From an uncultured Gammaproteobacteria bacterium (GTDB taxonomy: Bacteria; Patescibacteriota; Microgenomatia; Levybacterales; GWA1-39-11): DNA of 64,000 bases. The position numbers and the translations under genes are program-made. The notes beneath the pieces are model-generated. The model saw only the letters and a list, made by a program, of their open reading frames with translations, was not told the DNA's origin and ran no database searches. The stretch spans positions 1,067-65,066 of the forward strand of contig CAYPEN010000002.1 of NCBI GenBank assembly GCA_964409875.1. Direction: 5' to 3'. Positions 14,114 to 64,000 of the stretch are shown here, piece after piece. How positions within the stretch are numbered: position 1 is the stretch's first letter; the number at the start of each line of letters is the position of its first letter.

Positions 14114-14234
14114 ATTATTGCTAATAGTCAATAGTCGATAGCTAATAGTCAAAACTATTATTTCAAATTATTCATTTAACTTAATGCTTCCCACTACTAG
14201 CTTTTTGCTCTTAACTATTAGTTTTTAAGTTAAT

Positions 14235-16784: not shown

Positions 16785-18248
16785 ATGCACTTATTGTATT
16801 CAATTAGCCTCAAAAAGCTAGCACTTATTAGCGGTGTTTTTGTCGTATTGTGCATATTGTCAACTCGAATAACCCATGCAGCTTCTCTTTCTTCTGCTTC
16901 CGCAACACTTACTACTTCCCGTCCCTCTGCCTCCTCCCCGGTAAGCGCAGATGCAGCATCAGGCGTGGGCCAACTCTCAATTTTTAATAACGGCTCACGG
17001 TATTTGGCTTCCGATTCAGCCCAAATTGTGAGAGGTACGGGAATTATTAGCAATAACCCGCTAAGAATCGCTTCACAATCCGCAGCACTAACAACCGTCT
17101 ATATTTCAGGAACGCTAGGAACGGCTGCAGGAGCCGGCGCTGATGTATTGTATGTTCCTATTACTGCAATGCACACGGTAGGATTCACTGCAAATACTAC
17201 CATTCCAAGCAGCGGTAAAATTGTTATTACTTATCCCGGAACATTTACAAATAGCGCTTCGCCTTCTGCTTCTACATTTGCATTCAACGGACTTACGACA
17301 GGGAATGTAAAGTCATTCCCTGCTTCTGCCTGCAATTCTGTTTCGATTTCCTCAAGCGGCGCGCCTACAATTACCTGTACGACAAACGCAGTTCAAACTG
17401 CAGGAACCAACATACAAATTTATATCGGTTGTTCTGCTGTCGGTGGCTCTGGAGGCTGCACTACACAGGTTCCGACGTTAATCAATCCGACAAAGGCAGC
17501 AACTGCTGGTACTGCTGACATATGGAAAATCGGAGTCCAAACACAAGATGCATCTTCCGTCACCCTGGATAATTCAACGGTTGCAATAGGAACGGTCGAG
17601 TCGGTAACCGTACGTGCTACTATCGACCCGAGCCTTACATTCAGTATCGCTGGCATCAATTCGGGTGTCGCAGTAAACAACGGGAATGGAGGCTGTAGTG
17701 AGTCAGAACTCACTAATAGCGGCATCAACTCTTCAGCCACAGAGGTAGGTCTTGGCGTATTGTCAATTGCCCCCGCGGTTAATACAAAACTCAATAATAT
17801 AGCAGCCCAATTGTTAACAGTAACGACAAATGGAGCCAACGGATACTCAATCACCGCAACCTCCCCTGCTTCACTTATCAATCCAAGCACAGGATTCTTC
17901 CTCAACTCCAACACTACGCCACAGCTATTCCCTGCAACCGGACATTTCTTCGGCCTGCACGCATGTGGAGTTGACGCAGACTATTTGAGCACTAAATGGA
18001 CATCAACTACCAGTGACACTAACTGTAACTCGTATATAACAGGCTCTGCAGGAAATGTATGTAAGTATGGATGGCCGACTGCAACAACGCCCTTTGTTAT
18101 CGCACAAGACACCTCAGGTCCTATCGGGAACGGAGTACCTACAGGAAACGGGTTAACGTCAATATCATACGCCGCGACACAGGATGTGACGCTGCCACCT
18201 GGACAATATCAGACGGTTATAACGTACGTTGCGACACCGTCGTTCTAA
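16785..18248 (+). CDS. secreted Thr/Ser/Gly/Ala-rich surface protein (487 aa), paralog of 19411..20871
   Basis: Signal peptide. About 50% identical to the 19411..20871 product. Extreme C-terminus PGQYQTVITYVATPSF. Confidence 0.7.
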   Translation: MHLLYSISLKKLALISGVFVVLCILSTRITHAASLSSASATLTTSRPSASSPVSADAASGVGQLSIFNNGSRYLASDSAQIVRGTGIISNNPLRIASQSAALTTVYISGTLGTAAGAGADVLYVPITAMHTVGFTANTTIPSSGKIVITYPGTFTNSASPSASTFAFNGLTTGNVKSFPASACNSVSISSSGAPTITCTTNAVQTAGTNIQIYIGCSAVGGSGGCTTQVPTLINPTKAATAGTADIWKIGVQTQDASSVTLDNSTVAIGTVESVTVRATIDPSLTFSIAGINSGVAVNNGNGGCSESELTNSGINSSATEVGLGVLSIAPAVNTKLNNIAAQLLTVTTNGANGYSITATSPASLINPSTGFFLNSNTTPQLFPATGHFFGLHACGVDADYLSTKWTSTTSDTNCNSYITGSAGNVCKYGWPTATTPFVIAQDTSGPIGNGVPTGNGLTSISYAATQDVTLPPGQYQTVITYVATPSF

Positions 18249-18347
18249 TAGCTAATAGTCGATAGACAATAGGTAATAGAAAGAGCTAGTTTGAGTTATT
18301 GAACCAATTTAGCTATTAGCTATAAACTATTAACTATAAATTAAATT

Positions 18348-20918: not shown

Positions 20919-20930
20919 AACCATTCTCTC

Positions 20931-28694: not shown

Positions 28695-28696
28695 AT

Positions 28697-29529: not shown

Positions 29530-32500
29530 TTAAATTACAACATTCACAATCTTGCCGGGGATATATATGACTCTTTTGACCGTAACACCTTCTGTGTGTT
29601 TTGAAACTGCCTCAAGCGCTCTCTTTTCCGCTTCTTTTTGGTCTGTAATCTTAGAGCTTTCAAGCTCGAATTCTCCTCTTTTTTTGCCGTTCACCTGAAC
29701 GATAATAAGGACCGTATCTAAAACAAGCTGCTTTTGGTCGAACTTTGGCCACTCTTGCAGATGAATTGAGCTGTTATTTCCCAGCATATTCCATAATTCC
29801 TCAGTCATATGAGGCGCGAAAGGTGCCAAGAGCCTAAGGTAGGTATTGGCTTCTAATTTAGTTATGTCTTTCTCCTTATTAAGCGCGTTATACCATTCCA
29901 TAAGCTTTGCAATGGCTGTGTTATATCCAAATTCTTCTATATCTTTTGTTACTCCTTGTATAGTTTTGTGCATCAAACGAGCTCTTTCACTACTCAACTC
30001 TTCATTTTCTCCTACTCTTTCTGACAACAGCTTCCATACTTTGCGGATAAACCTTCCCATACCCTCAATACCACTATCCCGAAAGTCCCCTCCATCGCTA
30101 TATGGCCCTAAAAACATCAAATAAGTTCTTAATGTATCGGCGCCATACTTTGATATATATTCATCCGGAACGACCACATTTCCCTTACTTTTACTCATTT
30201 TTGCACCGTCTTTTATGATAAGTCCATGTGCGAAGAAGTTGGTAAATGGCTCCTCAAAATCTATAAATTTCAAATCACATAATACCATCGTGACAAAACG
30301 TGAATACAAGAGGTGTAGCACAGAATGCTCTGCTCCGCCAATATACTGGTTGACCGGTAACCACTTTTTAGTCCTTTCTGTATCAAAAGCTACATTTTCT
30401 ACATCAGTACTCGGGTATCTTAAAAAATACCAACTACTATCAAGAAAAGTGTCGCTTACGTCGGTCTCTCGGGTTGCATCCCCTCCACAGTGTGGGCATT
30501 TTGTTTTATAGAACTCAGGATGGTTGGCAAGAGGTGACTTGCCGGTCCCCATTGGCTTCCAATCTGCAACATCAGGAAGAAGAACAGGGAGTTCAGCCTC
30601 AGGAACCGAGAACCAACCACTCATTCCTTCTACCTCAAATTCGCCATTTTTTTGGCAAGTTGAGCAATAAACCATCGGTATTGGAGGCCCCCAATACCGC
30701 TGGCGGGAGATGAGCCAATCCCTGAGGTGATAATTGGCCTTACGTTTCCCTAGAGCTTTCTCTTCTAGCCAATTTAAAACCTTTCCCATTTCCTTTGGAA
30801 CCTCAAGACCGTTCCATTCTTTAGAATTAATAAGTACCCCTGCTCCTTCGTAGGGCTCTTCTGTATTCTGTCTTTTGTCTTCTGTCTTCTGAATTACCTC
30901 AATTATCGGCAAATTATATTTTTTGGCGAATGCAAAATCCCTACCATCATGCGCCGGAACGGCCATAATTGCACCCGTGCCATATCCTGAAAGCACGTAA
31001 TCGGCAACCCACACCGGAATGTTCTCTCCGTTTACCGGATTTATGGTATAAAGTCCTAAAAATACACCTGTTTTTTCCTTTCCTTCTCCCGTTCTTTCAA
31101 TTTCGTTTTTTGCCTTAGCCTTTTCAACATATGCTGCAACTTCACCTCTTATCTTTTCATCAACTCCAAAACTCCCCTCAACTATCTGAGAGACAAGCGC
31201 GTGCTCGGGAGCAACCACCATGAATGTCGCGCCAAACAATGTGTCAGGACGTGTAGTAAAGACCTTGAGGCTTTCAACAATCTCATTCAAGACGGCCGGT
31301 TCTGCCCCGTTTGTATTAAAATGAGGCGTATTGGCAGTAACTTCCACAAATTTTGCCCCAAGTCTTGCAGCAATTTCTTCCGGCTGAGAAGGAATAATTA
31401 CATCGTCGTGGAGATCTTTTAGCACGATAGCACTCCCCACTCTTTCTTTAACAGCCTCAAAATCAAATTTCCAATCACATGCTTTGGTTAATTCAGGCCT
31501 CTCAACTCCATCCAAAAACTCTGGCTTTAAAGGAGGCGCTATCATAATTAACTTATGAATATTCGTTTTCAGTTTTGGAAGTAATTTTAATGCAACATCT
31601 CCCCCCAAACTGTGGGTAACAACCACCGTCTTTGAGTCAAAGGTATGCTTTTCTAGGAGGAAATTAACTTGGGTGTCAATATCGGGGTTGCCGTTAGTTG
31701 GCAGATCATACATTTCAACTGTTGAACCCCTCTTCTCAAGTTCGGTTTTGAGCCATTGCCAAAAATCTTTTTTTTGTCCGCCATTGTGCCCATGAATAAA
31801 TATGTACTTATTCTTTGTAGCTACTTCAAATTCAACCTCTGCTCCCTCGCTTTTGCCTATCCAATTCCTCTGGGCAATTTTTACTTTCTCTGTCCAATTG
31901 AGTCCTTCGATGTTTTTAAGTAAACGATCTGCATAGTTTGTTATACGGAAAAACCATTGCTCCAGATTTTTCTTTTCAACTTTTGTTCCACAACGCTCAC
32001 AGCACCCATCTATCACTTGCTCATCAGATAAAACTGTCATGTCCTTTGGACACCAGTTGACTAATGCTGTATCGCGGTAGGCAAGTCCTGCTTTGAAAAG
32101 CTGAATAAAAAGCCATTGTGTCCATTTGTAATAATCAGGGTTATATGTCTCAACCGTCCTATTCCAATCGAATGAATTGCCGATTGAACGGAGTTGGCGG
32201 TAGAAATTCTTCTCTGCTATTTGGGCCTGAACTTTTGGGTGACGGCCCACTTTCAGTGCATAGTTTTCTGAATGGATTCCGAATCCATCAAGCCCAATCG
32301 GCTCCAAGACATCCTTCCCTTGCATCCTGTTAAACCGTGCGTATACATCAGCACCCGTAAAAGCGTACATATTGCCTACATGAAGTCCTTCTGCTGAAGG
32401 GTAAGGAAACATCATGAGGTTAAAATAGGGGTTCTTCGCTGCTGTTATATCAGGAGAAAAAGTGTTGTCACTCTCCCATTTTTCCTGCCATTTCGGTTCA

Positions 32501-32538
32501 ATTTCTGATGGATTATAGCGCGGCTCATTAACTTTCAT
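29530..32538 (-). CDS. leuS: leucyl-tRNA synthetase with inserted YdeN/RBBP9-family serine hydrolase domain
   Basis: HVGNMY (HIGH-like), KMSKSKGN and TTRPDT (editing) motifs. An extra domain of about 180 aa lies at 31258-31803. Confidence 0.9.
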   Translation of the reverse strand: MKVNEPRYNPSEIEPKWQEKWESDNTFSPDITAAKNPYFNLMMFPYPSAEGLHVGNMYAFTGADVYARFNRMQGKDVLEPIGLDGFGIHSENYALKVGRHPKVQAQIAEKNFYRQLRSIGNSFDWNRTVETYNPDYYKWTQWLFIQLFKAGLAYRDTALVNWCPKDMTVLSDEQVIDGCCERCGTKVEKKNLEQWFFRITNYADRLLKNIEGLNWTEKVKIAQRNWIGKSEGAEVEFEVATKNKYIFIHGHNGGQKKDFWQWLKTELEKRGSTVEMYDLPTNGNPDIDTQVNFLLEKHTFDSKTVVVTHSLGGDVALKLLPKLKTNIHKLIMIAPPLKPEFLDGVERPELTKACDWKFDFEAVKERVGSAIVLKDLHDDVIIPSQPEEIAARLGAKFVEVTANTPHFNTNGAEPAVLNEIVESLKVFTTRPDTLFGATFMVVAPEHALVSQIVEGSFGVDEKIRGEVAAYVEKAKAKNEIERTGEGKEKTGVFLGLYTINPVNGENIPVWVADYVLSGYGTGAIMAVPAHDGRDFAFAKKYNLPIIEVIQKTEDKRQNTEEPYEGAGVLINSKEWNGLEVPKEMGKVLNWLEEKALGKRKANYHLRDWLISRQRYWGPPIPMVYCSTCQKNGEFEVEGMSGWFSVPEAELPVLLPDVADWKPMGTGKSPLANHPEFYKTKCPHCGGDATRETDVSDTFLDSSWYFLRYPSTDVENVAFDTERTKKWLPVNQYIGGAEHSVLHLLYSRFVTMVLCDLKFIDFEEPFTNFFAHGLIIKDGAKMSKSKGNVVVPDEYISKYGADTLRTYLMFLGPYSDGGDFRDSGIEGMGRFIRKVWKLLSERVGENEELSSERARLMHKTIQGVTKDIEEFGYNTAIAKLMEWYNALNKEKDITKLEANTYLRLLAPFAPHMTEELWNMLGNNSSIHLQEWPKFDQKQLVLDTVLIIVQVNGKKRGEFELESSKITDQKEAEKRALEAVSKHTEGVTVKRVIYIPGKIVNVVI
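31258..31803 (-). other. Inserted alpha/beta serine hydrolase domain (YdeN/RBBP9-like) within leuS
   Basis: YIFIHGHNGG...FWQWLKTEL...VVVTHSLGGDVALKLL...LKDLHDDVIIP...TPHF aligns by eye with B. subtilis YdeN (IIHGY..HWFPWLKKRL..LVAHSLGC..SKDDQIVPF..HGGHF). Confidence 0.7.
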
Positions 32539-32725
32539 ATAGTAAAAGAATTGTACCAAACTTTTGCCTCAAATTATAGCCCATATGTACTTATGGTAAA
32601 ATGGCGCTGTCACTCATGCGGCCAATTCGCAAAAAGCTTGCGTTTTCGGGCTCTTGAGCAGACCGCCTAGGCTCGCCTCGGCGAGACTGGCACATTGAAA
32701 ACGCAGGAAAAGAAAGGATTAACCA

Positions 32726-50959: not shown

Positions 50960-51256
50960 ATGGACACTCCTGCCCAACAGAATCAAAACCCACAAACAGT
51001 ACCACCTTGGAAACAACCACACATTCCCGTGACTCAAAAGGATATGACAGGGTTGAACCCTGTCAACTTGGAGGAATATGCATATTCAAGTTTGTCTACC
51101 TATAATAATCCTCCACAGAGACCTTGGATTGAAACAAAAACTATTCTTCAATATTTTGAATCAAGTAAAAACCCTGCCACTTCATATATGGAATTTGTCC
51201 GGATGATTGATGAAGATGAACCGGAATTATCCCTACTCACCATCGAAGATGAATAA
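50960..51256 (+). CDS. small hypothetical protein sharing its N-terminus with the 51395 gene product
   Basis: MDTPAQQNQNPQTVPP...HIPVTQKDM resembles MDPTAQQNQNPPPQTV...HLPVTPQEM, and the similarity extends to the DNA level. Confidence 0.35.
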   Translation: MDTPAQQNQNPQTVPPWKQPHIPVTQKDMTGLNPVNLEEYAYSSLSTYNNPPQRPWIETKTILQYFESSKNPATSYMEFVRMIDEDEPELSLLTIEDE

Positions 51257-51394: not shown

Positions 51395-52987
51395 ATGGAT
51401 CCAACTGCCCAACAAAACCAAAACCCACCTCCTCAGACAGTGGCTGAACAAATGCGCGCATCGCACTTGCCTGTAACTCCACAGGAAATGCAAATAGCAC
51501 CACCCCCAACTCGTAGTTCTTTCAATTTGAAAAGCCCTTTAATTTTTGTACTGATGATTATATTTATTTTTACCGCCGGACTAACCTATCGATATTTATC
51601 TTCTAAAAGCACGCTAATTTCAAAAAAAGAAACAGCTCTTACTACTAGCGAGCAAAAAAATAAAAAGAATATAATTGTTATTGATATCTGCAGCGCCCGT
51701 GCCGACCACTTCTCGTACAATGGATATTTTAGACAGACAACTCCAAATATCGACAAGTTGGCTGCAAAATCAACCGTCTTTACCAATGGCTGGACTCAGT
51801 CTGGCTGGTGCCTCCCAAATTTTGCAACAATGCTTACGGGAACCCGGCCCCATGTTAATAAAATAATTACTCCAAATAGCGACTTGTCCCATTTAGATAA
51901 GAATCTTTTAACAATCCAACAAATTCTTCAAAAAGCTGGATATAGTACCGCAGGCTTTTCAGGCACACGCTGGCTTACAAAAGACACGTTTGGTCTTGTT
52001 GATAAAGGATTTGATATATTTGAAAATCCTTATGATGTTAAAAACGCTCATCCAATGGTAGGGATGTCATTTGCAAATAATCTTCCGCTGGTAAATGACT
52101 TCTTAAAGTCACAAAAGACATCTTCCCAGCCTTTTTTCCTTTATATAACTGTTGATGACCTACATTCACCCTATGCGTCACCAAATCCTAATAAATATGA
52201 CCCTAGCTATAAAGGCATACTCGATAATATACCAAATGACATGGATCAAATGTCAGATTACAGCATAGCAGGAGGCGTTTTTGACAAAATTTACAATAAC
52301 AGCGCTGATTTAAATCAAAACGATAAAGTTACAAACCAGTTAAAAAATGCTGTAGAGGAATTTAAAAAAGATCCTAAAAACATGGAACATCTTATTGCAA
52401 GATATGATGCTTCATTAAATTACGTTGACAGCATGGTTGGAAAAGTTTTAGATGAATTAGATAATGACCAATTAATGAAAAATTCAATTGTTATAATAAC
52501 GGGTCATCAAGGAGAACAATTCGGAGAGCATAATTTACTGGGACATACTGAAAGCCTTTATGAGCCGATTTTACGGGTTCCCTTCATAATCTATGATCCT
52601 GAAACCTCAAATGGATCAAGAAGAGATCAACTTGTTGAACGTATTGATATTCCCGCCACTATCCTCGATGCAACAAATCAATTACAAAGTCATCAAAATC
52701 AATTTACAGGCACAAGCCTCCTGCCCTTGCTTAAAGATAACAATATAAATTGGAAAACCACAATTTTTGCAGAGTCAAAACCTCCCCGTACACAGAAGGT
52801 AACAAATAGGGATATTGAGGAAAAAGCAGTACGAAACAAACAGTATAAATTAATCTGGGATTCAAATAAGAAAGATCAATATCAGCTTTATGATTTGACA
52901 GCAGATCCTAAGGAAACTAAAAACTTAGCATTATCTTTACCCAATGTAGTATCTGAATTAAAATTAGAGTTGGATAAAAATAATTAG
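51395..52987 (+). CDS. N-anchored sulfatase-like hydrolase/transferase (alkaline-phosphatase superfamily)
   Basis: NIIVIDICSARADHF...GW...PNFATMLTG. The canonical C-x-P-x-R sulfatase motif is not intact (CSARA). Confidence 0.65.
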   Translation: MDPTAQQNQNPPPQTVAEQMRASHLPVTPQEMQIAPPPTRSSFNLKSPLIFVLMIIFIFTAGLTYRYLSSKSTLISKKETALTTSEQKNKKNIIVIDICSARADHFSYNGYFRQTTPNIDKLAAKSTVFTNGWTQSGWCLPNFATMLTGTRPHVNKIITPNSDLSHLDKNLLTIQQILQKAGYSTAGFSGTRWLTKDTFGLVDKGFDIFENPYDVKNAHPMVGMSFANNLPLVNDFLKSQKTSSQPFFLYITVDDLHSPYASPNPNKYDPSYKGILDNIPNDMDQMSDYSIAGGVFDKIYNNSADLNQNDKVTNQLKNAVEEFKKDPKNMEHLIARYDASLNYVDSMVGKVLDELDNDQLMKNSIVIITGHQGEQFGEHNLLGHTESLYEPILRVPFIIYDPETSNGSRRDQLVERIDIPATILDATNQLQSHQNQFTGTSLLPLLKDNNINWKTTIFAESKPPRTQKVTNRDIEEKAVRNKQYKLIWDSNKKDQYQLYDLTADPKETKNLALSLPNVVSELKLELDKNN

Positions 52988-53953: not shown

Positions 53954-56900
53954 TTAATAGCACCCTAGTGGACCTTGCGGCGACAGGCACACAACACCTG
54001 AACCCATACACATATCTCCGCTCAAAGCACACGATGCATTTCCATTTATTGCAGTTTGTCCACAGGACACTGTTGTCGCAGTCGTCGATGAACAACTAGT
54101 GTTACCAGCTGACGAACAGAACGCTGAACCACAACAACCTACGTAATTCGGGGGAGGGCCGCAATCGTAACCTACACATTGGCTGGTCTGAACAATTGCA
54201 GCACAAACATATCCAGAAAATTGACCATTTGCGCTCGTACCTAAGTAACTTGTCATAGAATTACTGCAATTGTAGTCAAAGCTCCCATCTCCTCTGTTTG
54301 TAGTCTGGTAGCTTCCACTGTATCCTGGGTTGGCAGTTGCATTGCCATCGTAACAATCAAGGCCAGATGAAGTTGCTCGATACCCTGAAGGAAGTGAAGC
54401 ACCTGAGCATACATTTGAAGGTGTTGTGCTCGTTGTGTACCCATCACCGTCAGAATCCTGATACCCACTCAAATTCTGCCATTTTGTCGCGTCGCTATCA
54501 TTACAATCGGTACCCGGACTTGAATTAAATCCCGCAGGCAAAGCGCCTCCAGAACAAACAGGCGTAGCGGAATTTCCAACTACCCCGTCCTTGTCCCCAT
54601 CAACATAGGCATTTAAATTTTGGTATAAATTTATATTATTGTCATTACAATCGTTAGCATTCATAGACCATGGACCTGTGGGAGTATTATTGGCTACGCA
54701 AAGTGTTGTCGTTGCATAATTTGACCTAAGTCCGAATATAATTACACCTCCATATCCGGAAGACGACAAAGTTGCGCTTTTTACGCCTGTTGGACCTGCA
54801 CTATTCTGCATAACATCTGATATTGATACCATTCTTCCTCCTGTATTATTTGTATCCGCCCTCTCTGTCATGCCTGCAGGTGGCGTCCAAGAAGCTAACC
54901 CTGAACTTCTATATGCACCCGCAACCACAACAATCAATTCATAAGGGTATGATGTAGTTATTCCGGAAGAAGTTTGAAAAGCTGTTTGGAGAGAGTTATT
55001 ATTCCCAATTACAGTCACCTGAGAAGTATCAACTGGACTTGAGGAATTCACATTATCATATGCAACAATGTTACCTGCAAATGCCGTTACATTAGGACTT
55101 GCACTCCATGTATATGATGCAGGTTCTCCTCCTACTGCTACTTTATAGTAAACCGCAGTAGAAGACACTGTGGGCGAATTGTTGTCTACACGGTTTATCA
55201 AATTCCAACCTGCTGGAGGGGTTAATACTATGCTCGAACCACCAAAGGTAATGGATGCGATCAAAACAACTCCACTATCTACTCCTGCTGCAGGATTGTT
55301 AATAGTGACACTTGCCGTGGAGCCTGTATTATATCCTGTGCCTGCTGCACTTCCCTTAAATTGTATTGTTGAACTTGCTCCATTATGATCACCGTCGTTG
55401 TCGGCATACACAGTCGTATTTACGCAGCTTGAGGGGGTTGTGACATACGATGTTGCGGATGCTGTACCTGCACCTGCTGCATTTTTGGCCTTAACTGCAT
55501 ATCCATAAGTAGTGGTTTGCGAGACGGTGTTGTCAGTATAAGAAGTCAAAGCAGTGCTTGTTAATGTTGCAGAAGGTGAACATGATCCGTTTGTGCAGCG
55601 CAATAAATCATATCCATTGGTTATCGACGGCACTGCACCGCCTGTCTGAGTTCCACTCCAACTAATTGAGGTCTGGTTATAGGCAGGAGCCGAAACATTC
55701 ACTGTCGTTGGTGCGCAAGGCGTGCCATTAGAATCGTCCTGACAGTCGGTTGCCCCGCTTCCTAATGCGCTTCCCGCATCCATATATGTATATGCGCCTG
55801 GAGTAGCGCTCGTGGTAAAAGGCAAAACCGCCGTGTCGTACCGTGTACCATTTGCATTTGTTGCCATAACACAGAAGTAATAGGTTTGATTTGCCGAAAG
55901 GCTAGGCAATGTTGCTTGTGTCGTGGCACCGGATAAATTTGATGTCCCAGTTAGCCCTGTTGGCCCGGCAAGCGTATTCGGCTGGAGGTTACATGCAACG
56001 CCGGGCGTAGTTCCCCACAGATAGCTGATGCTGGTGCTTGCACCATTTGGATTTACTGTTGAGTTAAGTATTGCCGAATTCGTCGTAAGACTGCTCGCCG
56101 CACTTGTTGTAACAGTTGGCGCTGCAGGGGGCGTACTCCATACCATTGCATAAAGGCCGGTACATCGTTCAGTCGATGAGGTACTACCATTTAAAACACC
56201 TATTTCGATTGCATCAAGAGTCGCTGTTGTCCAACCAGACCCATTATTTGGATTTGTGTCATTGAGTTTAGCTAAAGATGCATAGGCTCCTATACCAGGA
56301 TCACTAGAAGTTGTATCACTATTAGTGATACCTGGAGAATTTGTCCGTAAACGGACTATAGTACCAGGAGAACTACCAGCTTCTGTTTTGCATATAGTTA
56401 ATGTTTTAACTGTTCCAATTCCATTAGATACTCCAGCAGTCGAACTGCTGTCGACAGTAAATGTAGATACATTTCCAGCTGTGTTTGCATCGCGGATATA
56501 GGTAGTATCTCCATTTGGCGGCACTTCATTAACCTGATTATACGCTGTTCCTGTTCCAGTTCCCCATAATTGAGCAAAACCAGCTCCTTTCGGCTTTAAA
56601 ATATTTACCTGCCCCGCCCCGGGATAAGCAGAATCGCTTATTGCAACATCGTCATAGTACCAATTGGCTGTATATGAATTTATCGGATCACCTAGAACAA
56701 GTTGATCCTGTGTGTAATTATAAGATGTCCATGTTTGAGGAGTCCCACCATCCACTTTGGCTTCACTTAGTCCGTTAGAAACGATTTTTGCCTCAATTCT
56801 ATACCATGTACCAGCGTTAAGAGTGGCTATATTTGCAGAGAAGCCGCTAGCACCAAATCCTGTTAGTACACCGGAAGAATTCACATAGAGACTTGCTATA

Positions 56901-57280
56901 TTGTTACTACCAGAATCTCTCCATGCAGAAATAAGCAAATTGCTTCCAGGCAAACTTCCCATATAGAAATAAAAGGTATAATACGTGGCAGCTGTGCGCC
57001 CTAAGAATGCACCATTACCATTGGTTGCTAAACCACGAATGGTAACGCCTCCATTTGTTCCACTAGGATTTATGCGAAGTGCATAATTTCCAGTACGCTT
57101 AGTTAATGACTGAATAGAATAAGTTCCATTTGTACTATATAATTCGGAAGAATCACCTGTCTCAAATCCAGTTATATTTAAATAAGCAGCTTCGGATTTT
57201 TGAACGAAGGCGAAACCACTGAAAATAACCAACAGCAAGCTAGCAAGTACTATTTTGTTAATAAATCCTATTTTTTTCAT
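53954..57280 (-). CDS. large secreted adhesin-like protein (1108 aa) with MopE-type metal-binding motifs and Cys-rich C-terminus
   Basis: Signal peptide MKKIGFINKIVLASLLLVIFSGFAFVQKSEA. D-x-D-x-D-G motifs. Shares a domain with the 978-aa protein. Confidence 0.7.
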   Translation of the reverse strand: MKKIGFINKIVLASLLLVIFSGFAFVQKSEAAYLNITGFETGDSSELYSTNGTYSIQSLTKRTGNYALRINPSGTNGGVTIRGLATNGNGAFLGRTAATYYTFYFYMGSLPGSNLLISAWRDSGSNNIASLYVNSSGVLTGFGASGFSANIATLNAGTWYRIEAKIVSNGLSEAKVDGGTPQTWTSYNYTQDQLVLGDPINSYTANWYYDDVAISDSAYPGAGQVNILKPKGAGFAQLWGTGTGTAYNQVNEVPPNGDTTYIRDANTAGNVSTFTVDSSSTAGVSNGIGTVKTLTICKTEAGSSPGTIVRLRTNSPGITNSDTTSSDPGIGAYASLAKLNDTNPNNGSGWTTATLDAIEIGVLNGSTSSTERCTGLYAMVWSTPPAAPTVTTSAASSLTTNSAILNSTVNPNGASTSISYLWGTTPGVACNLQPNTLAGPTGLTGTSNLSGATTQATLPSLSANQTYYFCVMATNANGTRYDTAVLPFTTSATPGAYTYMDAGSALGSGATDCQDDSNGTPCAPTTVNVSAPAYNQTSISWSGTQTGGAVPSITNGYDLLRCTNGSCSPSATLTSTALTSYTDNTVSQTTTYGYAVKAKNAAGAGTASATSYVTTPSSCVNTTVYADNDGDHNGASSTIQFKGSAAGTGYNTGSTASVTINNPAAGVDSGVVLIASITFGGSSIVLTPPAGWNLINRVDNNSPTVSSTAVYYKVAVGGEPASYTWSASPNVTAFAGNIVAYDNVNSSSPVDTSQVTVIGNNNSLQTAFQTSSGITTSYPYELIVVVAGAYRSSGLASWTPPAGMTERADTNNTGGRMVSISDVMQNSAGPTGVKSATLSSSGYGGVIIFGLRSNYATTTLCVANNTPTGPWSMNANDCNDNNINLYQNLNAYVDGDKDGVVGNSATPVCSGGALPAGFNSSPGTDCNDSDATKWQNLSGYQDSDGDGYTTSTTPSNVCSGASLPSGYRATSSGLDCYDGNATANPGYSGSYQTTNRGDGSFDYNCSNSMTSYLGTSANGQFSGYVCAAIVQTSQCVGYDCGPPPNYVGCCGSAFCSSAGNTSCSSTTATTVSCGQTAINGNASCALSGDMCMGSGVVCLSPQGPLGCY

Positions 57281-57296: not shown

Positions 57297-57319
57297 GTGA
57301 CAGGGTTGGACCCTGTCAC
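57297..57319. repeat. REP-like palindrome gtgacagggttggaccctgtcac overlapping a stop codon
   Basis: Same core as 51265-51289. Sits between the small anchored gene and the 1108-aa gene. Confidence 0.5.
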
Positions 57320-57711
57320 TTCACTACCACCTTTCCTTTATGGCCTGCTTCATCTACATATGTATATGTACCATCCTTTTCAAACAGGCTTGTTGCAATA
57401 TCATGCCCATTGAAGACAAACTCCTTGGAGTATTGCACCTCACCCTCCCACTTCAAAAGCACTTTTTTATCCAGTGGGTTGGTGAAGCGCACTAACATTC
57501 CTTTTGAAATGACGATTTCTTTTGGCGAAAAACCTGACGGCAACACCCGCACAACTGCAAAGCTCGGCTCTTTGGTGGGAGTTGGCCCTGTCATAGAAGT
57601 ACTGGTGCTTTTTCCACCCTTTTTAGGCGAGAGAAAACCAAATCCCAGCGCAACAAGACCGATAAGTACGGCGACTCCTATAAGTAATAATGCTACTCGT
57701 TTTGTTTCCAT
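57316..57711 (-). CDS. small N-anchored beta-rich protein (family member 1 of 4; cupredoxin-like fold suspected, no Cu ligand set)
   Basis: N-terminal TM followed by a beta-rich domain of about 100 aa ending GKVVVK. Confidence 0.6.
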   Translation of the reverse strand: METKRVALLLIGVAVLIGLVALGFGFLSPKKGGKSTSTSMTGPTPTKEPSFAVVRVLPSGFSPKEIVISKGMLVRFTNPLDKKVLLKWEGEVQYSKEFVFNGHDIATSLFEKDGTYTYVDEAGHKGKVVVK

Positions 57712-57751: not shown

Positions 57752-60580
57752 CTAATTCGGCCCGCTTCCATCGTTATAGTACGTTCGTCCATTAAAGACT
57801 GCTGAGGCTCCGACGCATTGAGGTCCGGCGGCTGTCGCAGTTTTATATCCATCATTATCAGCGTCTCTAACCATATTGGGCAATGTTCTATATGCATAAG
57901 CAGAATTATTATTACAGTCATATGTAGCGCTGGCTGAAGCTATCTTCCACGAGTAATTAAATACGCTGCTTATTGTGTTCCTCCTGATAAATTCAGTAGC
58001 GGCCGAAGGAGTTGAGCCCACATATTGAATTGTGTCATCAAGATAATTATCACGGTCTTTGTCATGAACAAATACTCCACCCGCAGCAAGAGTACCTCCC
58101 CGAGCAACAGCAAGTATCGCTCCTCTTCCTAGCGAAACGGAACCAAACGCAACTTTTTGACCCGCAGTAATAGAAAGTCTTGCTCCGGCGGGAATGGTAA
58201 GCTGTGCGGTATTTCTTGTTCCTGTGCCTGAATCTACTCCACCGATTGTTCCTGTGAAATTACAAACAGCGCCTGCCGGAATAGTCATGTTACCAGCTGA
58301 GGGCGCATCACATGGACCTGAAGGGCCGTCAGGAGTTGTAAATGAAATTACACCGCTGGTTCCTCCACTCGTAGCCCCTGTTGTGTAGTTAACCGAGCTA
58401 ACCGTGTTCACTGCATATGCACAGTAATAATATGTGGTGTTAGGATATAACCAGGTGCTTGCATTAAAAGGAATCTGATAGTTAAAGTTCACCGGCGAAC
58501 TTCCACTCCCCAAATCTATATCAGGGAAGTTACCGGACCCTTCCGGATACCGAATACCACCCGTATCGGATGTTGCAGCACAGCTAGCAGGTGCGCTGGT
58601 AAATACCCTAAAATGACCGTTGGTTGGGTAACCATTCGGGTTAGCTGACCCTTTCAAATTCACATAATACGATTGGGGGGCATCATTGCTAACGGTGGTT
58701 ACAGATGTCGGCGCAGGATTTAGCGTTGAAAATGTGCCAAGCGTATAAGCTGTACCATAAGAATTGGTTGCATACGCATTAAATGAATAGGCAGTATTGG
58801 GTTGTAAATTACTAATATTTACTGTAAATACTCCGGTTGTCGTCGCCCCTTGTGGAGTACAGGTTACACCCGAACCAACCAATTGTGGGTTATTGTTAGT
58901 AGATGTAACTGCATAGCAAATACCTCTTGCTGTTAACGATGAGCCTCCAATTGATGTAACGTTGCCACCAAGTGTAGCCGATGAAACCGTGACTGAGGCA
59001 CTAGTAGGCGAAGTTATTGTTGCAACACCTGCAGTCGTTGAAAAGGTATCATCTGTGGAATATGTAGTCCCAAATGCATTTGTAGCATAAGACCTGAAGT
59101 GGTAAAGAGTACTTGGACTTAAATTGTTGAATGTAACTGTGTAGCCCCCAGTAGTTCCAGTAGCTGTTAAGCAATTTCCACCTATAGAAGGGTTAGCGCC
59201 AGTGCCAACACAAACTCCACGACTAGTTATTGTTGAACCCCCATCATTATTTACATAACCGACCAAAGTTGCGCCTGTAGCCGAAATACCACTAACACTT
59301 TGTATTGTTACAGTAATACGATAATGGTCAATGCTATATGTATAAGAACCACTACCAACAATATTTGACTCCTGTACTCTCATTCCGAACGTGGCACTAT
59401 TGATATCGGTTGGTGTGAAAGTTGTTCCCCAGAGATCTGAAGATGATCCGGCAGACCCATATTGCATAGTTGTGTTGATGCTAATATATCTTCCATTACT
59501 GTTAGTACATCCATAACTACCACCTGAGGTTTGATTCGCACAAGTGGAAAGGAATGTATACCAGCTGTCAGTTCCCGACGAAACAGAGCTTTTAGCTTCA
59601 GCCTTTATCCCCAGAATTGAAGCGCTTACTGGTATATTAAATCCAAAACCATAACCCCACAAAAGACTCGTATATCTACCATAAAGAGAACCGTCCAAAA
59701 CTGAAGTTGCATATTGACCGTCTGCTGTATTTGCATATGAAGGATTGGTCCAGGGTTTTGAATATGCATCATAATTATCAGACCAAACAGTTGTTGGATT
59801 CATTGGACCAACATCAATTGTCCCGTTTGTTCCACTTGTGTTACTCATTGTCGGCGCTAAGGGTTGGGTTCGAAGAGCAATTGTAACAACACCTGCTGTT
59901 GCAGTTTCAGATACAGTGGAAGTAAATGATCCTGTCGTTCCAATAGAAGCCTGAGCAATATCAAACATTGCAGTACTTCTACACGATGCGTTATTTGTTG
60001 AAGCTCGTGAGGAAGTACCCGTTGGCGTTGTCCACGTATCACCCAGACAACCCGAAGAATAACCATTATAGAAAAGCAGAACCATATCATTTGCAACAGT
60101 TGTTGTTAGAGCAGTTGTTGCGTGAGTGGTGGAAGTTGCTTGACCTGCAATCGTATGCACATCAATTGGAGTGGAGTTGTTAACTCCCGAATAGGCAACA
60201 ACTCCGGCAGACCAACAGAGACCGCTTCCATAGCTATTAGTCCACGTATAGCTTGCAGGTTCAGATGATACAACTCTGTAATATGTATAAACATTTAGGC
60301 CGTTTGTTGCATCATTTAAATTATCGATAAGAGTCCATCCTGTAGGCGTAGTCCAAGTACCTGAAGTGCCTGAATAGATGTTGGCTATCATAACATCCCC
60401 GTTTTGCACTCCTGCAGGCACATTAATAACAGCATTGGTGGGAGAACAAGCACTACCACTATTAGCAGTTGATGCTGCTCTAAACGTTATTGCAGCCTCA
60501 ACTCTTGTTGGCTTACTTAATAATAACGCAAATATTACCAAACTAAATCCAGACAATAATAATAATTTTTTAAATTTCAT
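57752..60580 (-). CDS. large secreted adhesin-like protein (about 942 aa) with Fn3-like repeats and MopE-type motifs
   Basis: Start at MKFKKLLLLSGFSLVIFALLL (signal peptide). Shares the domain P.GW.LI...YY.V...EPASYTW with the 1108-aa protein. Confidence 0.7.
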   Translation of the reverse strand: MKFKKLLLLSGFSLVIFALLLSKPTRVEAAITFRAASTANSGSACSPTNAVINVPAGVQNGDVMIANIYSGTSGTWTTPTGWTLIDNLNDATNGLNVYTYYRVVSSEPASYTWTNSYGSGLCWSAGVVAYSGVNNSTPIDVHTIAGQATSTTHATTALTTTVANDMVLLFYNGYSSGCLGDTWTTPTGTSSRASTNNASCRSTAMFDIAQASIGTTGSFTSTVSETATAGVVTIALRTQPLAPTMSNTSGTNGTIDVGPMNPTTVWSDNYDAYSKPWTNPSYANTADGQYATSVLDGSLYGRYTSLLWGYGFGFNIPVSASILGIKAEAKSSVSSGTDSWYTFLSTCANQTSGGSYGCTNSNGRYISINTTMQYGSAGSSSDLWGTTFTPTDINSATFGMRVQESNIVGSGSYTYSIDHYRITVTIQSVSGISATGATLVGYVNNDGGSTITSRGVCVGTGANPSIGGNCLTATGTTGGYTVTFNNLSPSTLYHFRSYATNAFGTTYSTDDTFSTTAGVATITSPTSASVTVSSATLGGNVTSIGGSSLTARGICYAVTSTNNNPQLVGSGVTCTPQGATTTGVFTVNISNLQPNTAYSFNAYATNSYGTAYTLGTFSTLNPAPTSVTTVSNDAPQSYYVNLKGSANPNGYPTNGHFRVFTSAPASCAATSDTGGIRYPEGSGNFPDIDLGSGSSPVNFNYQIPFNASTWLYPNTTYYYCAYAVNTVSSVNYTTGATSGGTSGVISFTTPDGPSGPCDAPSAGNMTIPAGAVCNFTGTIGGVDSGTGTRNTAQLTIPAGARLSITAGQKVAFGSVSLGRGAILAVARGGTLAAGGVFVHDKDRDNYLDDTIQYVGSTPSAATEFIRRNTISSVFNYSWKIASASATYDCNNNSAYAYRTLPNMVRDADNDGYKTATAAGPQCVGASAVFNGRTYYNDGSGPN

Positions 60581-60581
60581 T

Positions 60582-60998
60582 TTATTTAATAGTAATTGAA
60601 ACCTTATTATTCGTATCGTTAGATAACCAAGAAGTAAATTCGCCTGATTTACCAAACACTTGCGTATTAGTGGTTTTTCCGGGCCCAACTGTTATATCAG
60701 AACTCATAAGCCCACTTGTTTTTATCGTAACCTCTTTTGCAGTATTATTTTTGACTATTAATGCATTACCTACCTTCACCTCTATCGTATGTGGAGATAG
60801 ACCATCTGATGTCACAAAAAGTGTTCCAGATGGTACTGGTATGGCTGTTGGATTTATTGCTGTATTTTTCATAGATGTAGTTGGCTTTTGAGTTAGAACT
60901 TCGATTTTTGTTTGAGATTTCGACTTAAAGAGAATAATAATACCAAAAAGAACAATTAATCCCATACCTAATATAATTACTATCACTTTTCTATTCAT
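60582..60998 (-). CDS. small N-anchored beta-rich protein (family member 2 of 4)
   Basis: N-terminal TM, beta-rich domain, C-terminus VSITIK. Confidence 0.6.
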   Translation of the reverse strand: MNRKVIVIILGMGLIVLFGIIILFKSKSQTKIEVLTQKPTTSMKNTAINPTAIPVPSGTLFVTSDGLSPHTIEVKVGNALIVKNNTAKEVTIKTSGLMSSDITVGPGKTTNTQVFGKSGEFTSWLSNDTNNKVSITIK

Positions 60999-60999
60999 A

Positions 61000-62028
61000 T
61001 TACCTATTTATTCTAATGGACGATGTTGATGTATTTCCCAGACTATCTGTTCCTATCAAATCATACCCATACGTTCTGTTATAGGTATCCGTAACCTGCC
61101 AAGTTCCCGACCACGTTCCGCTCTGAGCAGTCCCTCCGCTTCGGGACAACGTAAATTCTCTCGCGTCGCCATCCGAGTATAATACTGCTTTAATTGAAGT
61201 AATATTTCCAACAGAATCATCTGCTTGCACTCTAATCGATTGCGCCTGGCCAATCGACTGGTATAACGGCATAATTGTTGCACTATATATATCAGGATTG
61301 GTACTTGCAGGATTCCCAAAGTCATAGGTAACAGAGCCTACAGGAGGAGTCGGGGTTGGAGTTGGGGTTGAGGACGGCAATGGAGTCGGTGTTGCGGTAG
61401 GATTGATGGTTTCTATTCCTCCGCCGCCAATTGAAGGCCCTGCAGCAAGTGCGTCACAATTGACAGCTCCTGACAATGTACATGCCCATGTGGCACCTGA
61501 GTAACCGGCAGGAACACAATTTGAAAGGGATGAAAGCGGACAAATATTGGTAAGCGCAGAGGACTTACTTACCTGCGCAAATACCACATTCCATTGAGGA
61601 CAGGCAGCTGATGTATCGGTACGATACTTATAACACGTCCCGCTGCCTCCATTACATTTCGGGTCCTGAGGAACCTTCTTCATATATACAGTGTTATTCA
61701 CCCTCCACTCGTTACCGAAAGGAATTTGCTGTGGGTAACATTTTTTATCACCATAGTAAAGATCCAAAGCGGTCTTAACCTGCTTCAAATCGGCAACTCT
61801 TTGAGCGTCTTGGCTTTTATTCAGCTGTCCTACGGGGTTGATGGTCAAAAGAATGCCGCCGATAAGTGTCGCAAGAATTGTTGCGGCAACAAGCACTTCA
61901 ATAAGAGTAAAACCTTCTTTAGAAGACAATAGACAATAGACACTAGACACTAGATTTTTTTTATTCAATCTTCTGTCTTCTCTCTTCTGTCTTTTGACTA
62001 ATATATTCTGTTGGGCAGATAATTTCAT
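61000..62028 (-). CDS. large type IV pilin/pseudopilin (class III signal peptide)
   Basis: KEGFTLIEVLVAATIL prepilin motif. The true start may be an internal GTG near 61950. About 290-aa C-terminal globular part. Confidence 0.75.
   Translation of the reverse strand: MKLSAQQNILVKRQKREDRRLNKKNLVSSVYCLLSSKEGFTLIEVLVAATILATLIGGILLTINPVGQLNKSQDAQRVADLKQVKTALDLYYGDKKCYPQQIPFGNEWRVNNTVYMKKVPQDPKCNGGSGTCYKYRTDTSAACPQWNVVFAQVSKSSALTNICPLSSLSNCVPAGYSGATWACTLSGAVNCDALAAGPSIGGGGIETINPTATPTPLPSSTPTPTPTPPVGSVTYDFGNPASTNPDIYSATIMPLYQSIGQAQSIRVQADDSVGNITSIKAVLYSDGDAREFTLSRSGGTAQSGTWSGTWQVTDTYNRTYGYDLIGTDSLGNTSTSSIRINR
61925..61992. repeat. Heptanucleotide tandem repeats (ACAATAG x2, ACACTAG x2; TCTTCTG/TCTTCTC x3) in the 5' end or leader of the pilin gene
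   Basis: Read directly from the sequence. The unit length is not a multiple of 3. Confidence 0.55.
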
Positions 62029-62532
62029 TTATTTAATAACTACAATTCCCGTCATTGACGGTTTTTCTTTACTTTTGTAGGTGAATGTGCCTGATGTATT
62101 AAAGGTTACTTGCTTGTATTCCCCGGGTGCAATTGCTCCTAAATTAAGTACAGCGCTGTTTGCATCATTTGCCTCGATAGTAATAGGGTCTGCGTCGATA
62201 TTAAGGAATTGAATGTAACCGCCTTTTGGAATGGTAACTGGAGAAGGATTAAACCTTCTCGAATTTAACATGACCGTTGAATTTTCTATTGGTGGAATTG
62301 TCGGATACGGGGTGAGGTTGACCTTTTTTGTAGGCTCGTTGGATGTGGAAGGGATATTGTTGTCAACGACGTTTTCTTTCCCTTTCCCAAAAAGCAAAAT
62401 TATTGAGAGCACCAGGAAAATAACAATTCCCCCCACTAAAATGCCCATGATTATTTTTTCGTTTTTGTTCATGGCGCGAGTAAGCTCATTTGAGATATAT
62501 CCTGCTTCTTTTGACTTGACTCTTTTTGGCAT
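62029..62532 (-). CDS. small N-anchored beta-rich protein (family member 3 of 4)
   Basis: N-terminal TM. C-terminus GTFTYKSKEKPSMTGIVVIK. Confidence 0.6.
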   Translation of the reverse strand: MPKRVKSKEAGYISNELTRAMNKNEKIIMGILVGGIVIFLVLSIILLFGKGKENVVDNNIPSTSNEPTKKVNLTPYPTIPPIENSTVMLNSRRFNPSPVTIPKGGYIQFLNIDADPITIEANDANSAVLNLGAIAPGEYKQVTFNTSGTFTYKSKEKPSMTGIVVIK

Positions 62533-62835: not shown

Positions 62836-63726
62836 TCATTTATACGGTATTTCAGTTGTAACAGTTATCCCCATGCTATCGGTCGCTTGAATCCGTAAAA
62901 AATATTGCTTATTTATCGTATCAGTTATATTCCATATGCCATACCACGTTCCATTTGTGTTTTCACCATCTACAAGATGCAACGGATACGTATTTACCTG
63001 TGTATCAGTTCTTACTGTTACATTGACAGAATTGATTGGATTTGTTGAACGCGCTTCGATTGAGAATCTTTGCAAGCCGCGTGCTGCAGGATATGGACTA
63101 ATATTACCTGCTGTAAAATAGGGGTCAGTATTCATTGCAACGGTAAAATTCCCACCGGTAGCTGGCGTAGGGATGGGAGTCGAGGAAATTGACGGAACTG
63201 TAGTTGGCGTCACTTTATCACCATACTTTAATGCGGACGCTTGCAGTGACTGACAATCTACATCTCCTGATAGTTGGCAGGCCCATGAAGAGTTGTAGCC
63301 TGATGGCGCACATTTGGATAAGCTTGATAATACACATGCATCTCCATTGCTTGGCTGCTTATCGAGCTTTGCAAATACGATTCCCCATTGAGGACATGCT
63401 TTTGTATCTGTATAATAACTAAAGGGTACGTTGTTAGGATCTTGGGGAACCTTTTTCATATAAACGGTATTATTTTCTTTCCACTCTCCCCCATTTGTAA
63501 GCACATCGGAAAAAGAAGAATTTTTTGAAGGAAAACACTTTTTATCAGAATAATAAAGATTGAGTGCCTTTTTTATTTCCCGGATACTCTCCTGTCTCAC
63601 CACATCCTTTGCTTTTGTTGTCTGCCTGAAAGGGTTGATGCCTATCAAAACTCCAGCCCCAAGCGTTGCAAGAATCGTAAGTGCTACCAAAATTTCAACA
63701 AGAGTAAAACCTTTGTTCTCTAGCAT
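62836..63726 (-). CDS. large type IV pilin (paralog of 61000..62028)
   Basis: MLENK|GFTLVEILVALTIL canonical prepilin leader and hydrophobic stalk. Shares NTVYMKKVPQDP...CPQW with the other pilin. Confidence 0.8.
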   Translation of the reverse strand: MLENKGFTLVEILVALTILATLGAGVLIGINPFRQTTKAKDVVRQESIREIKKALNLYYSDKKCFPSKNSSFSDVLTNGGEWKENNTVYMKKVPQDPNNVPFSYYTDTKACPQWGIVFAKLDKQPSNGDACVLSSLSKCAPSGYNSSWACQLSGDVDCQSLQASALKYGDKVTPTTVPSISSTPIPTPATGGNFTVAMNTDPYFTAGNISPYPAARGLQRFSIEARSTNPINSVNVTVRTDTQVNTYPLHLVDGENTNGTWYGIWNITDTINKQYFLRIQATDSMGITVTTEIPYK

Positions 63727-63780
63727 ATCTTCTTTCGATGCTACTCTTTTATGCATAGTATTGAAATGTTAGGCTAAGTA

Positions 63781-64000
63781 TTTGCCAATTACTGAATTAC
63801 TATCGTTCCTTTTTGCTCCGGTATTAATTTATTGTAGTAACTAAATTGTCCGGGGGTTGAAAACTTTATAGGACTGGATGTACTTCCCACCTCAATTTTC
63901 CCAATTTTTAGATCATTATTCGCTGGAGCTGATAATATATTTGGCTCTATATCTATCACCTTCTCTGAAAAATTAGCAAAATTGATATATGTACCTTTTT
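63781..64000 (-). CDS. small beta-rich protein (family member 4 of 4), C-terminal part only; truncated by window edge
   Basis: Translation ...GQFSYYNKLIPEQKGTIVIQ* aligns with the C-termini of the other three members. Confidence 0.5.

Follow-up and report, generated by a model that had tools for sequence, protein, structure and literature searches.

Heptanucleotide-repeat arrays in a Levyibacteriota prepilin leader form the two arms of one predicted hairpin

Type IV pili are needed for attachment and DNA uptake in the Candidate Phyla Radiation (CPR, or Patescibacteria), whose members encode many pilin paralogs. We analysed a 64,000-nucleotide (nt) stretch of contig CAYPEN010000002.1 (the window), a locus whose host lineage is Levyibacteriota (CPR, Microgenomates). 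One of its type IV prepilin genes, on the minus strand, carries runs of 7-nt repeats at its 5′ end. An earlier reading of the DNA letters on their own (hereafter the sequence-only reading) had taken these runs for a slipped-strand phase-variation switch. The locus raises a simple question: what are these repeats, and do they turn the pilin on and off? We found that the anatomy had been read correctly and that the switching mechanism was not supported. The explanation to which we lean, with a confidence somewhat better than even, is that each run forms one arm of a single 78-nt heptanucleotide-repeat palindrome, resembling short tandemly repeated repetitive (STRR) or repetitive extragenic palindromic (REP) sequences, and tolerated in a leader peptide that is cleaved off.

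The prepilin leader and its two heptamer arrays

The gene has the layout of a type IV prepilin, namely a leader of 39 amino acids (aa), the junction G39↓F40-T-L-I-E (the arrow marks the cleavage site), a hydrophobic helix at the N-terminus, a globular domain that contains Cys, a Pro/Thr linker and, last, a C-terminal domain. PF07963 (N_methyl) matched prepilin residues 36–60 (E = 5.7e-6, above the gathering score). The cleavage region, KEG↓FTLIEVLVAATILATL, agrees with the pattern G(−1)↓F(+1)-T-L-I/V-E(+5) followed by a hydrophobic helix, and the Gly39 codon lies at 61914–61912 (−). Judging from this class III signal-peptide motif, the 39-aa leader would be cut off by prepilin peptidase. On the sense strand, the 5′ end of the gene reads ATG AAA TTA TCT GCC CAA CAG AAT ATA TTA GTC AAA A, then GACAGAA GAGAGAA GACAGAA GA, then TTGAATAAAAAAAAT, then CTAGTGT CTAGTGT CTATTGT CTATTGT CT, and continues into TCT AAA GAA GGT TTT ACT CTT ATT GAA.

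The heptamer tandem repeats that had been placed at 61925–61992 are real. Tandem Repeats Finder (TRF) returned two period-7 arrays, one at 61924–61954 (4.4 copies, 95% matches, + strand unit AGACAAT) and the other at 61969–61993 (3.6 copies, 88% matches, + strand unit TCTTCTG). Both fall within prepilin codons 12–35, that is, inside the open reading frame (ORF) and 5′ of the KEG↓FTLIE motif, where the sequence-only reading had located them. The same reading described tracts of four and three units. The units are degenerate, and at most two identical ones follow each other (CTAGTGT x2 and CTATTGT x2), the other arm alternating GACAGAA and GAGAGAA. What had been overlooked is that the two arrays are complementary to one another. 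As roughly reverse-complementary arms of 25 nt each (61923–61947 and 61969–61993), 72% complementary and 21 nt apart, they fold into a single long imperfect hairpin (RNA minimum free energy −28.4 kcal/mol, z = −2.4 against dinucleotide shuffles). Rfam gave no match for the element at E ≤ 1. An internal promoter or intrinsic terminator was considered and rejected, consensus matches being no commoner than in shuffles and none falling inside the element. Programmed frameshifting on slippery heptamers was likewise rejected: the pattern X XXY YYZ is matched by only some units, for example AAATTTC elsewhere, and by none of those at this locus.

Where translation starts decides whether these repeats are coding. 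We compared DNA from 62 genome loci and 80 metagenome loci, taking as anchors for a frame test the nucleotide motif ATG..CTGCC and the Gly codon. In 26 anchored loci, which include every orthologous locus, the spacing between anchors was a multiple of three. The pilin frame contained no stop at any orthologous locus, against one to seven stops in each of the other two frames. Besides, the N-terminus MK.(T/S/P)AQ is common to most of the 89 homologs at any leader length. Because orthologs are in frame and stop-free, because this N-terminus is conserved and because the ATG at 62028 directly adjoins the TAA of the upstream gene, sequence comparison identifies this ATG, already proposed in the sequence-only reading, as the true start, with the repeats translated within the 39-aa leader. 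The alternative GTG suggested near 61950 does exist in frame (61950–61948, codon 27), and an in-frame TTG (Table 1) stays in frame after any unit slip in simulation. A start at TTG 61929 or GTG 61950, which would make the repeats an untranslated 5′ leader, had also been raised. In its favour, the TTG would give a leader of canonical length, the purine-rich arm precedes the ATG in four relatives (L145–L148, see below), and arrays elsewhere are typical of intergenic DNA. Set against the 26 stop-free loci, the conserved N-terminus and the adjoining stop codon, it appears extremely improbable. One more observation speaks against it: unit 3 of the 3′ arm is TATTGTC, in the window and in L065, where TAGTGTC would make an in-frame TAG. 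This avoidance of TAG is the one visible coding constraint on the element.

A typical type IV prepilin leader is short, basic and about 5–25 aa long. The 39-aa leader departs from this, and from the median of 11–12 aa in CPR relatives. Yet the distance from the N-terminus to G↓FTL(I/V)E spans 5–76 residues in the 89 homologs, and an independent sample of 113 CPR pseudopilins had leaders of 2–49 aa, like the range elsewhere, which gives an overall range of 2–76 aa. For annotation, this means that long prepilin leaders in CPR are real. The paralogous pilin of the window (62836–63756) has a 16-aa leader with no array in it, in agreement with the sequence-only reading. The short forms MKREG and MSNTHG were considered as possible frameshift alleles and rejected: the upstream frame was intact in the DNA, so that they are gene-caller choices.

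Presence, absence and replacement of the element among relatives

Aligned with orthologs that lack it, the element is an in-frame insertion (Table 1) whose boundaries are ambiguous by a few nt owing to flanking AAAGA repeats. AAAGA stands at both ends and is possibly part of the stem rather than a target-site duplication. Orthologs with leaders of 13–14 aa, for example MKLSAQNIIKREG and MKLSAQKIIHKEG, belong to the same 90%-identity protein cluster as the window pilin. Third codon positions of these element-free orthologs (at least 90% protein identity) are just 41–52% identical to those of the window gene. Since these positions are saturated, the orthologs come from different species, and presence or absence of the element is therefore a polymorphism between species, not between strains. 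Three contigs on record encode exactly this pilin protein, four the upstream flanking protein and three the downstream one. On the three distinct contigs that were read, which stem from two sequencing runs, a 240-nt stretch around the leader matches the window exactly. At any orthologous site we found the whole element, another heptamer family in its stead, or nothing. The element is thus wholly present or wholly absent, and does not differ in unit number.

In orthologs with long leaders and examined DNA, the best nucleotide period was usually 7 or 14 (L012 gave period 14 with a weak score, L074 no period-7 signal). Most long-leader orthologs share a common build, a purine-rich array followed by an A-rich spacer and a complementary pyrimidine-rich array. 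The two-arm build recurs in L004, L008, L013, L064, L065 and L145, with A-rich spacers in L004, L008, L064 and L145. Units of the 5′ and 3′ arms are GTTAGGA and TCCCATC in L004, AGACAAT and CTAATGT in L008, AGAATAT and CAATATT in L013, and TAGTAGA and CTACATG in L064; L066 and L153 carry a GTATTAC family. These families are incongruent with pilin similarity: a relative at 92% has none, one at 81% has GTATTAC, one at 75% has TAGTAGA, and one at 70% has AGACA, the type of the window. In L145–L148, the purine arm lies 5′ of the ATG and the ATG within the spacer, so the position of the element is not tied to the reading frame.

What is kept among relatives is the nucleotide sequence of the units. 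Seven AGACA-type elements (window, L065, L150, L151, L152, L008 and L145) align column for column with a mean identity of 69%. They hold four units on the left and four to five on the right, with invariant AGAC and GTCT cores. In the mature part of these genes, third codon positions share only 33–50% identity, that is, they are saturated. Conservation there is confined to codon positions 1 and 2, position 3 being random. In the leader, by contrast, identity is about equal at positions 1, 2 and 3, at roughly 60–70% (third positions 52–74%; AGACA-type pairs and the GTATTAC pair). Because of this equality, peptide-level selection on the insert is absent, and the unit family is conserved at the nucleotide level. 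A selected structure in the sense mRNA was rejected as an explanation: two-sided changes affected just 3 of 21 predicted pairs, the covariation term was unfavourable, the antisense RNA was usually more stable than the sense RNA, and there was no Rfam match.

Period-7 arrays are by no means confined to the pilin. Our own scan found 10 of them in the window against 0.4 expected from Markov-2 shuffles, a ~25-fold excess, and 8 against 0.1 at a stricter threshold. Other periods from 4 to 15 gave 0–4 arrays, save period 14 with six, largely the same arrays as period 7. Intergenic hairpins with degenerate heptamer-repeat arms occur at 18248–18340, 14123–14200, 20872–20925 and 23734–23817. In the first of these, TAG is invariant in five units, the 4-nt spacers are variable, and the array faces (CTA)x5. 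Overall, (TAG-N4)x3 occurs 10 times in the window against 0.27 expected. On the + strand, the pilin element has the unit AATAGAC, a member of an ATAGNC family that gave 12 matches against 2.5 expected and stands at three window sites (14124–14150, 18248–18274 and 61929–61948). The AGACAGA-type unit (+ strand TCTTCTG) is shared by the pilin arm and an array in the leucyl-tRNA synthetase (LeuRS) gene.

The pattern extends to other CPR. Across 607 kb of CPR loci, period-7 arrays are far more numerous than those of any other period. Array density per kb falls from 1.2 in the 200 nt upstream of prepilin Gly(−1) codons through 0.73 in other intergenic DNA and 0.19 in 5′ zones of other ORFs to 0.05 in coding interiors. 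At 318 CPR pilin sites, array coverage peaks between −50 and 0 nt from Gly(−1), at 7–9% of sites, and is zero past the cleavage site; the median length is 22.5 aa for leaders that contain arrays and 12 aa for those without. About one in six CPR pilin genes has heptamer arrays in the leader-coding region, and many short leaders are built from an array, such as (AAATTTC)n giving KFQISNF. Arrays also turn over in evolutionary time, as seen in the homogenised units of L051 against L052 and in the replacement of whole arrays, which are exchanged between alleles whose mature 5′ coding parts are at least 88% identical. Such turnover differs from a reversible switch at the pilin locus.

Incidentally, a different repeat, a ~10-nt unit ATTCGYGTYN, stands in 2–5 copies directly 5′ of the ATG of another pilin in L112, L117, L126, L120, L123 and L037, loci in which the mature 5′ coding parts of that pilin are at least 88% identical. 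This array shows true copy-number variation in a pilin 5′ untranslated region.

Weighing the explanations

The account that we find somewhat probable is that of a tolerated repeat palindrome. The palindrome would be a single member of a dispersed family that abounds in this Levyibacteriota genome and among related CPR; it sits in frame in the dispensable middle of the leader, between MK.(S/T)AQ and KEG↓FTLIE. By the sequence comparison, translation begins at ATG 62028 and reads through it, and the sole visible filter is against loss of frame and against stop codons. Because prepilin peptidase would remove everything upstream of Gly(−1), the insert should leave the mature pilin unaffected and almost anything could be tolerated in the leader. 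As a matter of fact, leaders are permissive: three loci carry a whole GIY-YIG domain in an in-frame fusion upstream of the cleavage site, and other leaders contain duplications of ~30 nt. Slippage, template switching, conversion between dispersed copies or other processes at the DNA level may have produced the element and may keep it up. The element would not act as a slipped-strand on/off switch; whatever effect it has would be one that any hairpin could exert in the mRNA or DNA of the operon. Several points weigh against this account. The AGACA/TGTCT cores and the count of 4 + 4–5 units are kept across lineages with saturated synonymous sites, which is unlike purely neutral DNA and calls for either a function or continual re-seeding by a dispersed family that is itself conserved. 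Coverage of pilin leaders reaches 7–9%, against ~2% of ordinary intergenic DNA (a rough estimate from 41 arrays of ~30 nt in 56 kb), and permissiveness alone may not explain this several-fold excess. Finally, the 64-kb window holds no second full-length copy of the palindrome, and its 26 ORFs scanned include no transposase, with none of the REP-associated tyrosine transposase (RAYT) type seen.

The phase-variation switch, in which gain or loss of a heptamer would shift ATG 62028 and either turn the pilin off or move initiation to an internal TTG or GTG, now seems quite unlikely to us. Its arithmetic is sound: seven is not a multiple of three, the tract lies in the 5′ leader-coding region of a surface protein, as in classical contingency loci, and a simulated change of ±1 unit truncates the ATG-initiated product at 18–58 aa. 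It can further point to the enrichment of heptamer arrays in CPR pilin 5′ ends, to some CPR paralogs with perfect tracts of 4–5 units, to homogenised units, which speak for slippage or turnover over evolutionary time, and to hmw1A of H. influenzae, whose phase variation is driven by 7-bp simple sequence repeats (SSRs; PMC8262952). There is even one OFF-like allele. Of 63 CPR pilin 5′ regions with arrays, an in-frame ATG is present in 60, only a GTG or TTG in frame in two, and no in-frame start in one (L051+3498). The pilin locus itself, however, shows neither a long near-perfect tract, with at most two identical consecutive units, nor a repeat-number polymorphism with out-of-frame alleles among relatives. 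None of the 26 orthologs is out of frame, 62 of the 63 array-bearing regions have an in-frame start, alleles differ by the whole element and not by single units, and the three contigs from two sequencing runs are identical at the leader. A comparison of repeat counts, of the kind that the sequence-only reading had called for, gave 4 + 4–5 units in all seven lineages. That unit number is kept despite saturated synonymous divergence is unlike a hypermutable tract. Unit length alone is no ground for annotating such repeats as phase-variable.

Two further alternatives were considered. A cis-acting element is possible, though we hold it doubtful: the periodic cores ((A/U)AG-N4 and their complement) and/or the hairpin would be read by an RNA- or single-stranded-DNA-binding factor, or would modulate translation, stability or processing of the pilin cistron, and so tune pilin output. 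This would account for the conservation of unit cores and number at the nucleotide level across saturated divergence, for the concentration of arrays just 5′ of Gly(−1) in the 318 CPR pilin sites and for their several-fold higher density than that roughly estimated for ordinary intergenic DNA. It would also agree with the excess of (TAG-N4)x3, with the invariant triplet and variable spacers at 18248, and with a HutP-like grammar of two (XAG-N4)x3 sites, a 12–17-nt linker and a hairpin between two cistrons. Moreover, TAACTGA heptamer repeats beside start codons have been proposed as sites at which a post-transcriptional regulator acts (PMC4679880). Against it, orthologs lack the element or have an unrelated heptamer family in its place, and the unit family also occurs at unrelated intergenic sites and in LeuRS. 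The sense RNA is usually the less stable strand, covariation is almost nil, Rfam gave no match, promoter- and terminator-like signals were not above chance level, and no candidate binding protein was identified. In a broader form, CPR pilin-leader arrays would be a conserved cis-acting system read at the nucleic-acid level, by a binding factor or as a substrate of recombination or slippage, that sets or diversifies the expression of pilin paralogs; this too we consider unlikely. Exchange of 5′ cassettes, whereby the hairpin-forming arrays would be recombination hotspots promoting swaps of leaders or 5′ segments among pilin alleles or paralogs, is in our view highly improbable. Heptamer families that do not follow pilin similarity, and whole-array replacement between alleles whose mature 5′ coding parts share at least 88% identity, are what it would predict, and class replacement has likewise been described for the Nostoc P6b repeats (PMC4476775). 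But no donor copy was identified, the window paralog has no array, and independent gain and loss explains the pattern equally well.

Collectively, the locus presents either a new safe harbour for selfish repeats, upstream of Gly(−1) because everything there is cut off, or an undescribed cis-element within a coding region. If true, a cis-acting array system would set or diversify the expression of pilin paralogs on which episymbiotic CPR depend. Either way, the pilin leader offers a concrete and easily tested locus for the heptamer-repeat question.

Some observations on individual leaders stand on their own. The single OFF-like allele lies at about 3448–3500 of L051, where (AAACTCA)x4 follows an ATG that is one base off the pilin frame, and no in-frame start is present; L052, a close allele of L051, is in frame. 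For L034, a paralog with a perfect tract, a second protein search returned no close alleles. The GIY-YIG nuclease domains (Pfam E about 1e-14) stand immediately 5′ of G↓FTLIE at about 2800–3066 of L029, 2450–3009 of L068 and 2270–2565 of L109. These three fusions are in independent CPR loci, and in L068 the domain is followed by three copies of a ~120-nt repeat. In-frame tandem duplications of ~30 nt that include the cleavage-site codons were seen in L009 (2994–3105) and in P0032, P0038, P0138 and P0141. GFTFLKKKQT occurs three times against once in P0042 of the same 90% cluster, and several unrelated CPR pseudopilin leaders have degenerate extra copies of GFTL.

Neighbouring features and comparison with known systems

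Table 1. Features of the prepilin gene, its leader element and related sites, in window coordinates.
Feature	Position	Strand	Basis or remark
Type IV prepilin gene, 342 aa	61000..62028	−	ORF list; PF07963; 89 homologs
ATG start codon	62026..62028	−	Directly adjoins TAA stop of upstream gene (62029–62031)
Leader-coding segment, codons 1–39, MKLSAQQNILVKRQKREDRRLNKKNLVSSVYCLLSSKEG	61912..62028	−	Motif and homology
78-nt (26-codon) in-frame insertion relative to orthologs without the element	61921..61998	−	Alignment with L149, L002 and L144
5′ purine-rich arm, sense GACAGAA GAGAGAA GACAGAA GA, (A/T)AGACAA family	61969..61993	−	TRF, sequence, alignment
A-rich spacer/loop, sense UUGAAUAAAAAAAA	61955..61968	−	Sequence, folding
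3′ pyrimidine-rich arm, sense CTAGTGT CTAGTGT CTATTGT CTATTGT CTT, TGTCTAN family	61923..61954	−	TRF, sequence, alignment
In-frame TTG (codon 34), would yield canonical 6-aa leader MSSKEG	61927..61929	−	Sequence; slip simulation
Intergenic array (A)ATAGTC x4, ATAGNC family	14123..14152	+	TRF, scans
Intergenic hairpin, (TAG-N4)x5 + spacer + (N4-CTA)x5, unit family related to the pilin element	18248..18340	+	Scans
In-frame (CAGAAGA)x5 in LeuRS, unit type of the pilin purine arm, encodes QKTEDKRQNTEE; single arm without hairpin partner	30857..30891	−	TRF, scans
Gene for small membrane-anchored cupredoxin-like protein, upstream of the pilin	62029..62532	−	ORF list, Pfam

The cupredoxin-like gene is probably co-transcribed with the pilin. 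The best promoter-like site lies at 62682–62653, in a window where such signals are not above shuffle level. Its product is one of a set of small membrane-anchored proteins, all encoded on the minus strand (63789–63959, 62029–62532, 60582–60998 and 57316–57711) and alike at their C-termini (G.F.Y....G.VVIK); two of the four gave weak cupredoxin-like Pfam matches. Their genes alternate with pilins and with large fibronectin-like surface proteins (53954–57280 and 57752–60688). Farther away, LeuRS (29530–32559, −) has a Pfam Ser_hydrolase/alpha-beta-hydrolase match over residues 253–416, between the catalytic and editing domains, which is an unusual insertion. ComEC (split into Competence and metallo-beta-lactamase (MBL) parts) and ComEA adjoin it at 26635–29488 (−), and a 3725-aa repetitive protein takes up 11 kb of the window (37583–48760, +). 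Many metagenome-assembled genome records with this clearly CPR/Levyibacteriota locus (L002, L004–L018 and others) are titled "uncultured Gammaproteobacteria bacterium", which looks like a placeholder or an error.

Another short signal was noticed next to the start codon. As a frequent genomic motif, CTGCCCAA was rejected, with 3 matches in the window against about 2 expected. All three sites, at 62011–62018 (−), 50970–50977 (+) and 51405–51412 (+), lie 9–15 nt after an ATG start, in the pilin and in two adjacent paralogous ORFs beginning MDTPAQQN and MDPTAQQN. Pilin orthologs keep NCT-GCC-CAA at the nucleotide level, and the first residue it encodes varies between T, P and S. This conservation suggests a nucleic-acid signal at the pilin 5′ end.

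Several known systems resemble the pilin-leader element in part. In the opa genes of Neisseria, a contingency locus is formed by CTCTT repeats in the region coding for the signal peptide. With opa, and with hmw1A (PMC8262952), the pilin shares a tandem repeat whose unit is not a multiple of three at the 5′ end of a surface gene, where ON/OFF arithmetic is possible. Those tracts, however, are long, perfect and strain-variable with many OFF alleles, whereas the pilin tracts are short, degenerate, constant and in frame. REP sequences and bacterial interspersed mosaic elements (BIMEs) are dispersed short imperfect palindromes, mostly between genes. The likeness to them lies in the dispersal of a palindrome family, in its presence or absence at orthologous sites and in the conservation of its sequence type among related species. 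Yet REPs are not made of heptamer tandem repeats and are not normally translated. The HutP sites of the Bacillus hut terminator consist of XAG triplet clusters 4 nt apart, hence a 7-nt period, with a 12–17-nt linker in a hairpin between cistrons (PMC2425495). Here the resemblance is one of grammar alone, other heptamer families at the pilin site having no XAG; no HutP homolog turned up, and no genome-wide search for one was made.

Nearer to our element are the heptameric SSRs, an unexplained excess of which has been reported in several bacterial groups (PMC4692102, PMC4679880), including GGGAATC in Xanthomonas and GGGGAYT in Nostoc (PMC4692102), and TAACTGA in Beggiatoaceae, cyanobacteria and Bacteroidetes, where the repeats lie next to start codons (PMC4679880). 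As in those intergenic SSRs and in STRR sequences, heptamers are over-represented and mostly intergenic, and some inverted arrays can form stem-loops. In the 64 kb of this genome that was covered, the STRR-like traits comprise the over-representation of tandem 7-nt units, complementary arrays that form a stem-loop, and a dispersed unit family. The excess known from cyanobacteria, Xanthomonas and Beggiatoaceae is now extended to CPR. Lineage and units differ, however, and those reports describe neither a concentration in pilin leaders nor conserved in-frame palindromes (PMC4692102, PMC4679880). In the literature searched, we found no earlier description of a heptamer-repeat hairpin in a CPR prepilin leader.

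By architecture, the closest described analogue is a stem-loop, P6b, in the group I intron of Nostoc tRNA-Leu(UAA). P6b is built from two complementary 7-nt repeat motifs, of Class I (TDNGATT) or Class II (NNTGAGT); classes are replaced independently of phylogeny, repeat number is kept within lineages, and an origin from mobile elements is suspected, unproven (PMC4476775). In both cases, hairpin arms made of tandem complementary 7-nt repeats occupy a tolerant site of a functional gene, and distinct classes occur at the same site. The likeness is architectural alone, with no sequence homology between the AGACAAN/TGTCTAN units and the cyanobacterial STRR/P6b units (TDNGATT, NNTGAGT, GGGGAYT and TAACTGA). 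Unlike P6b, which belongs to the RNA of a cyanobacterial self-splicing intron, the pilin element lies in a translated leader of a CPR bacterium, in frame and free of stops. Seen through this analogy, what is new here is an STRR/P6b-like heptamer-repeat hairpin in CPR, embedded in frame within a prepilin leader.

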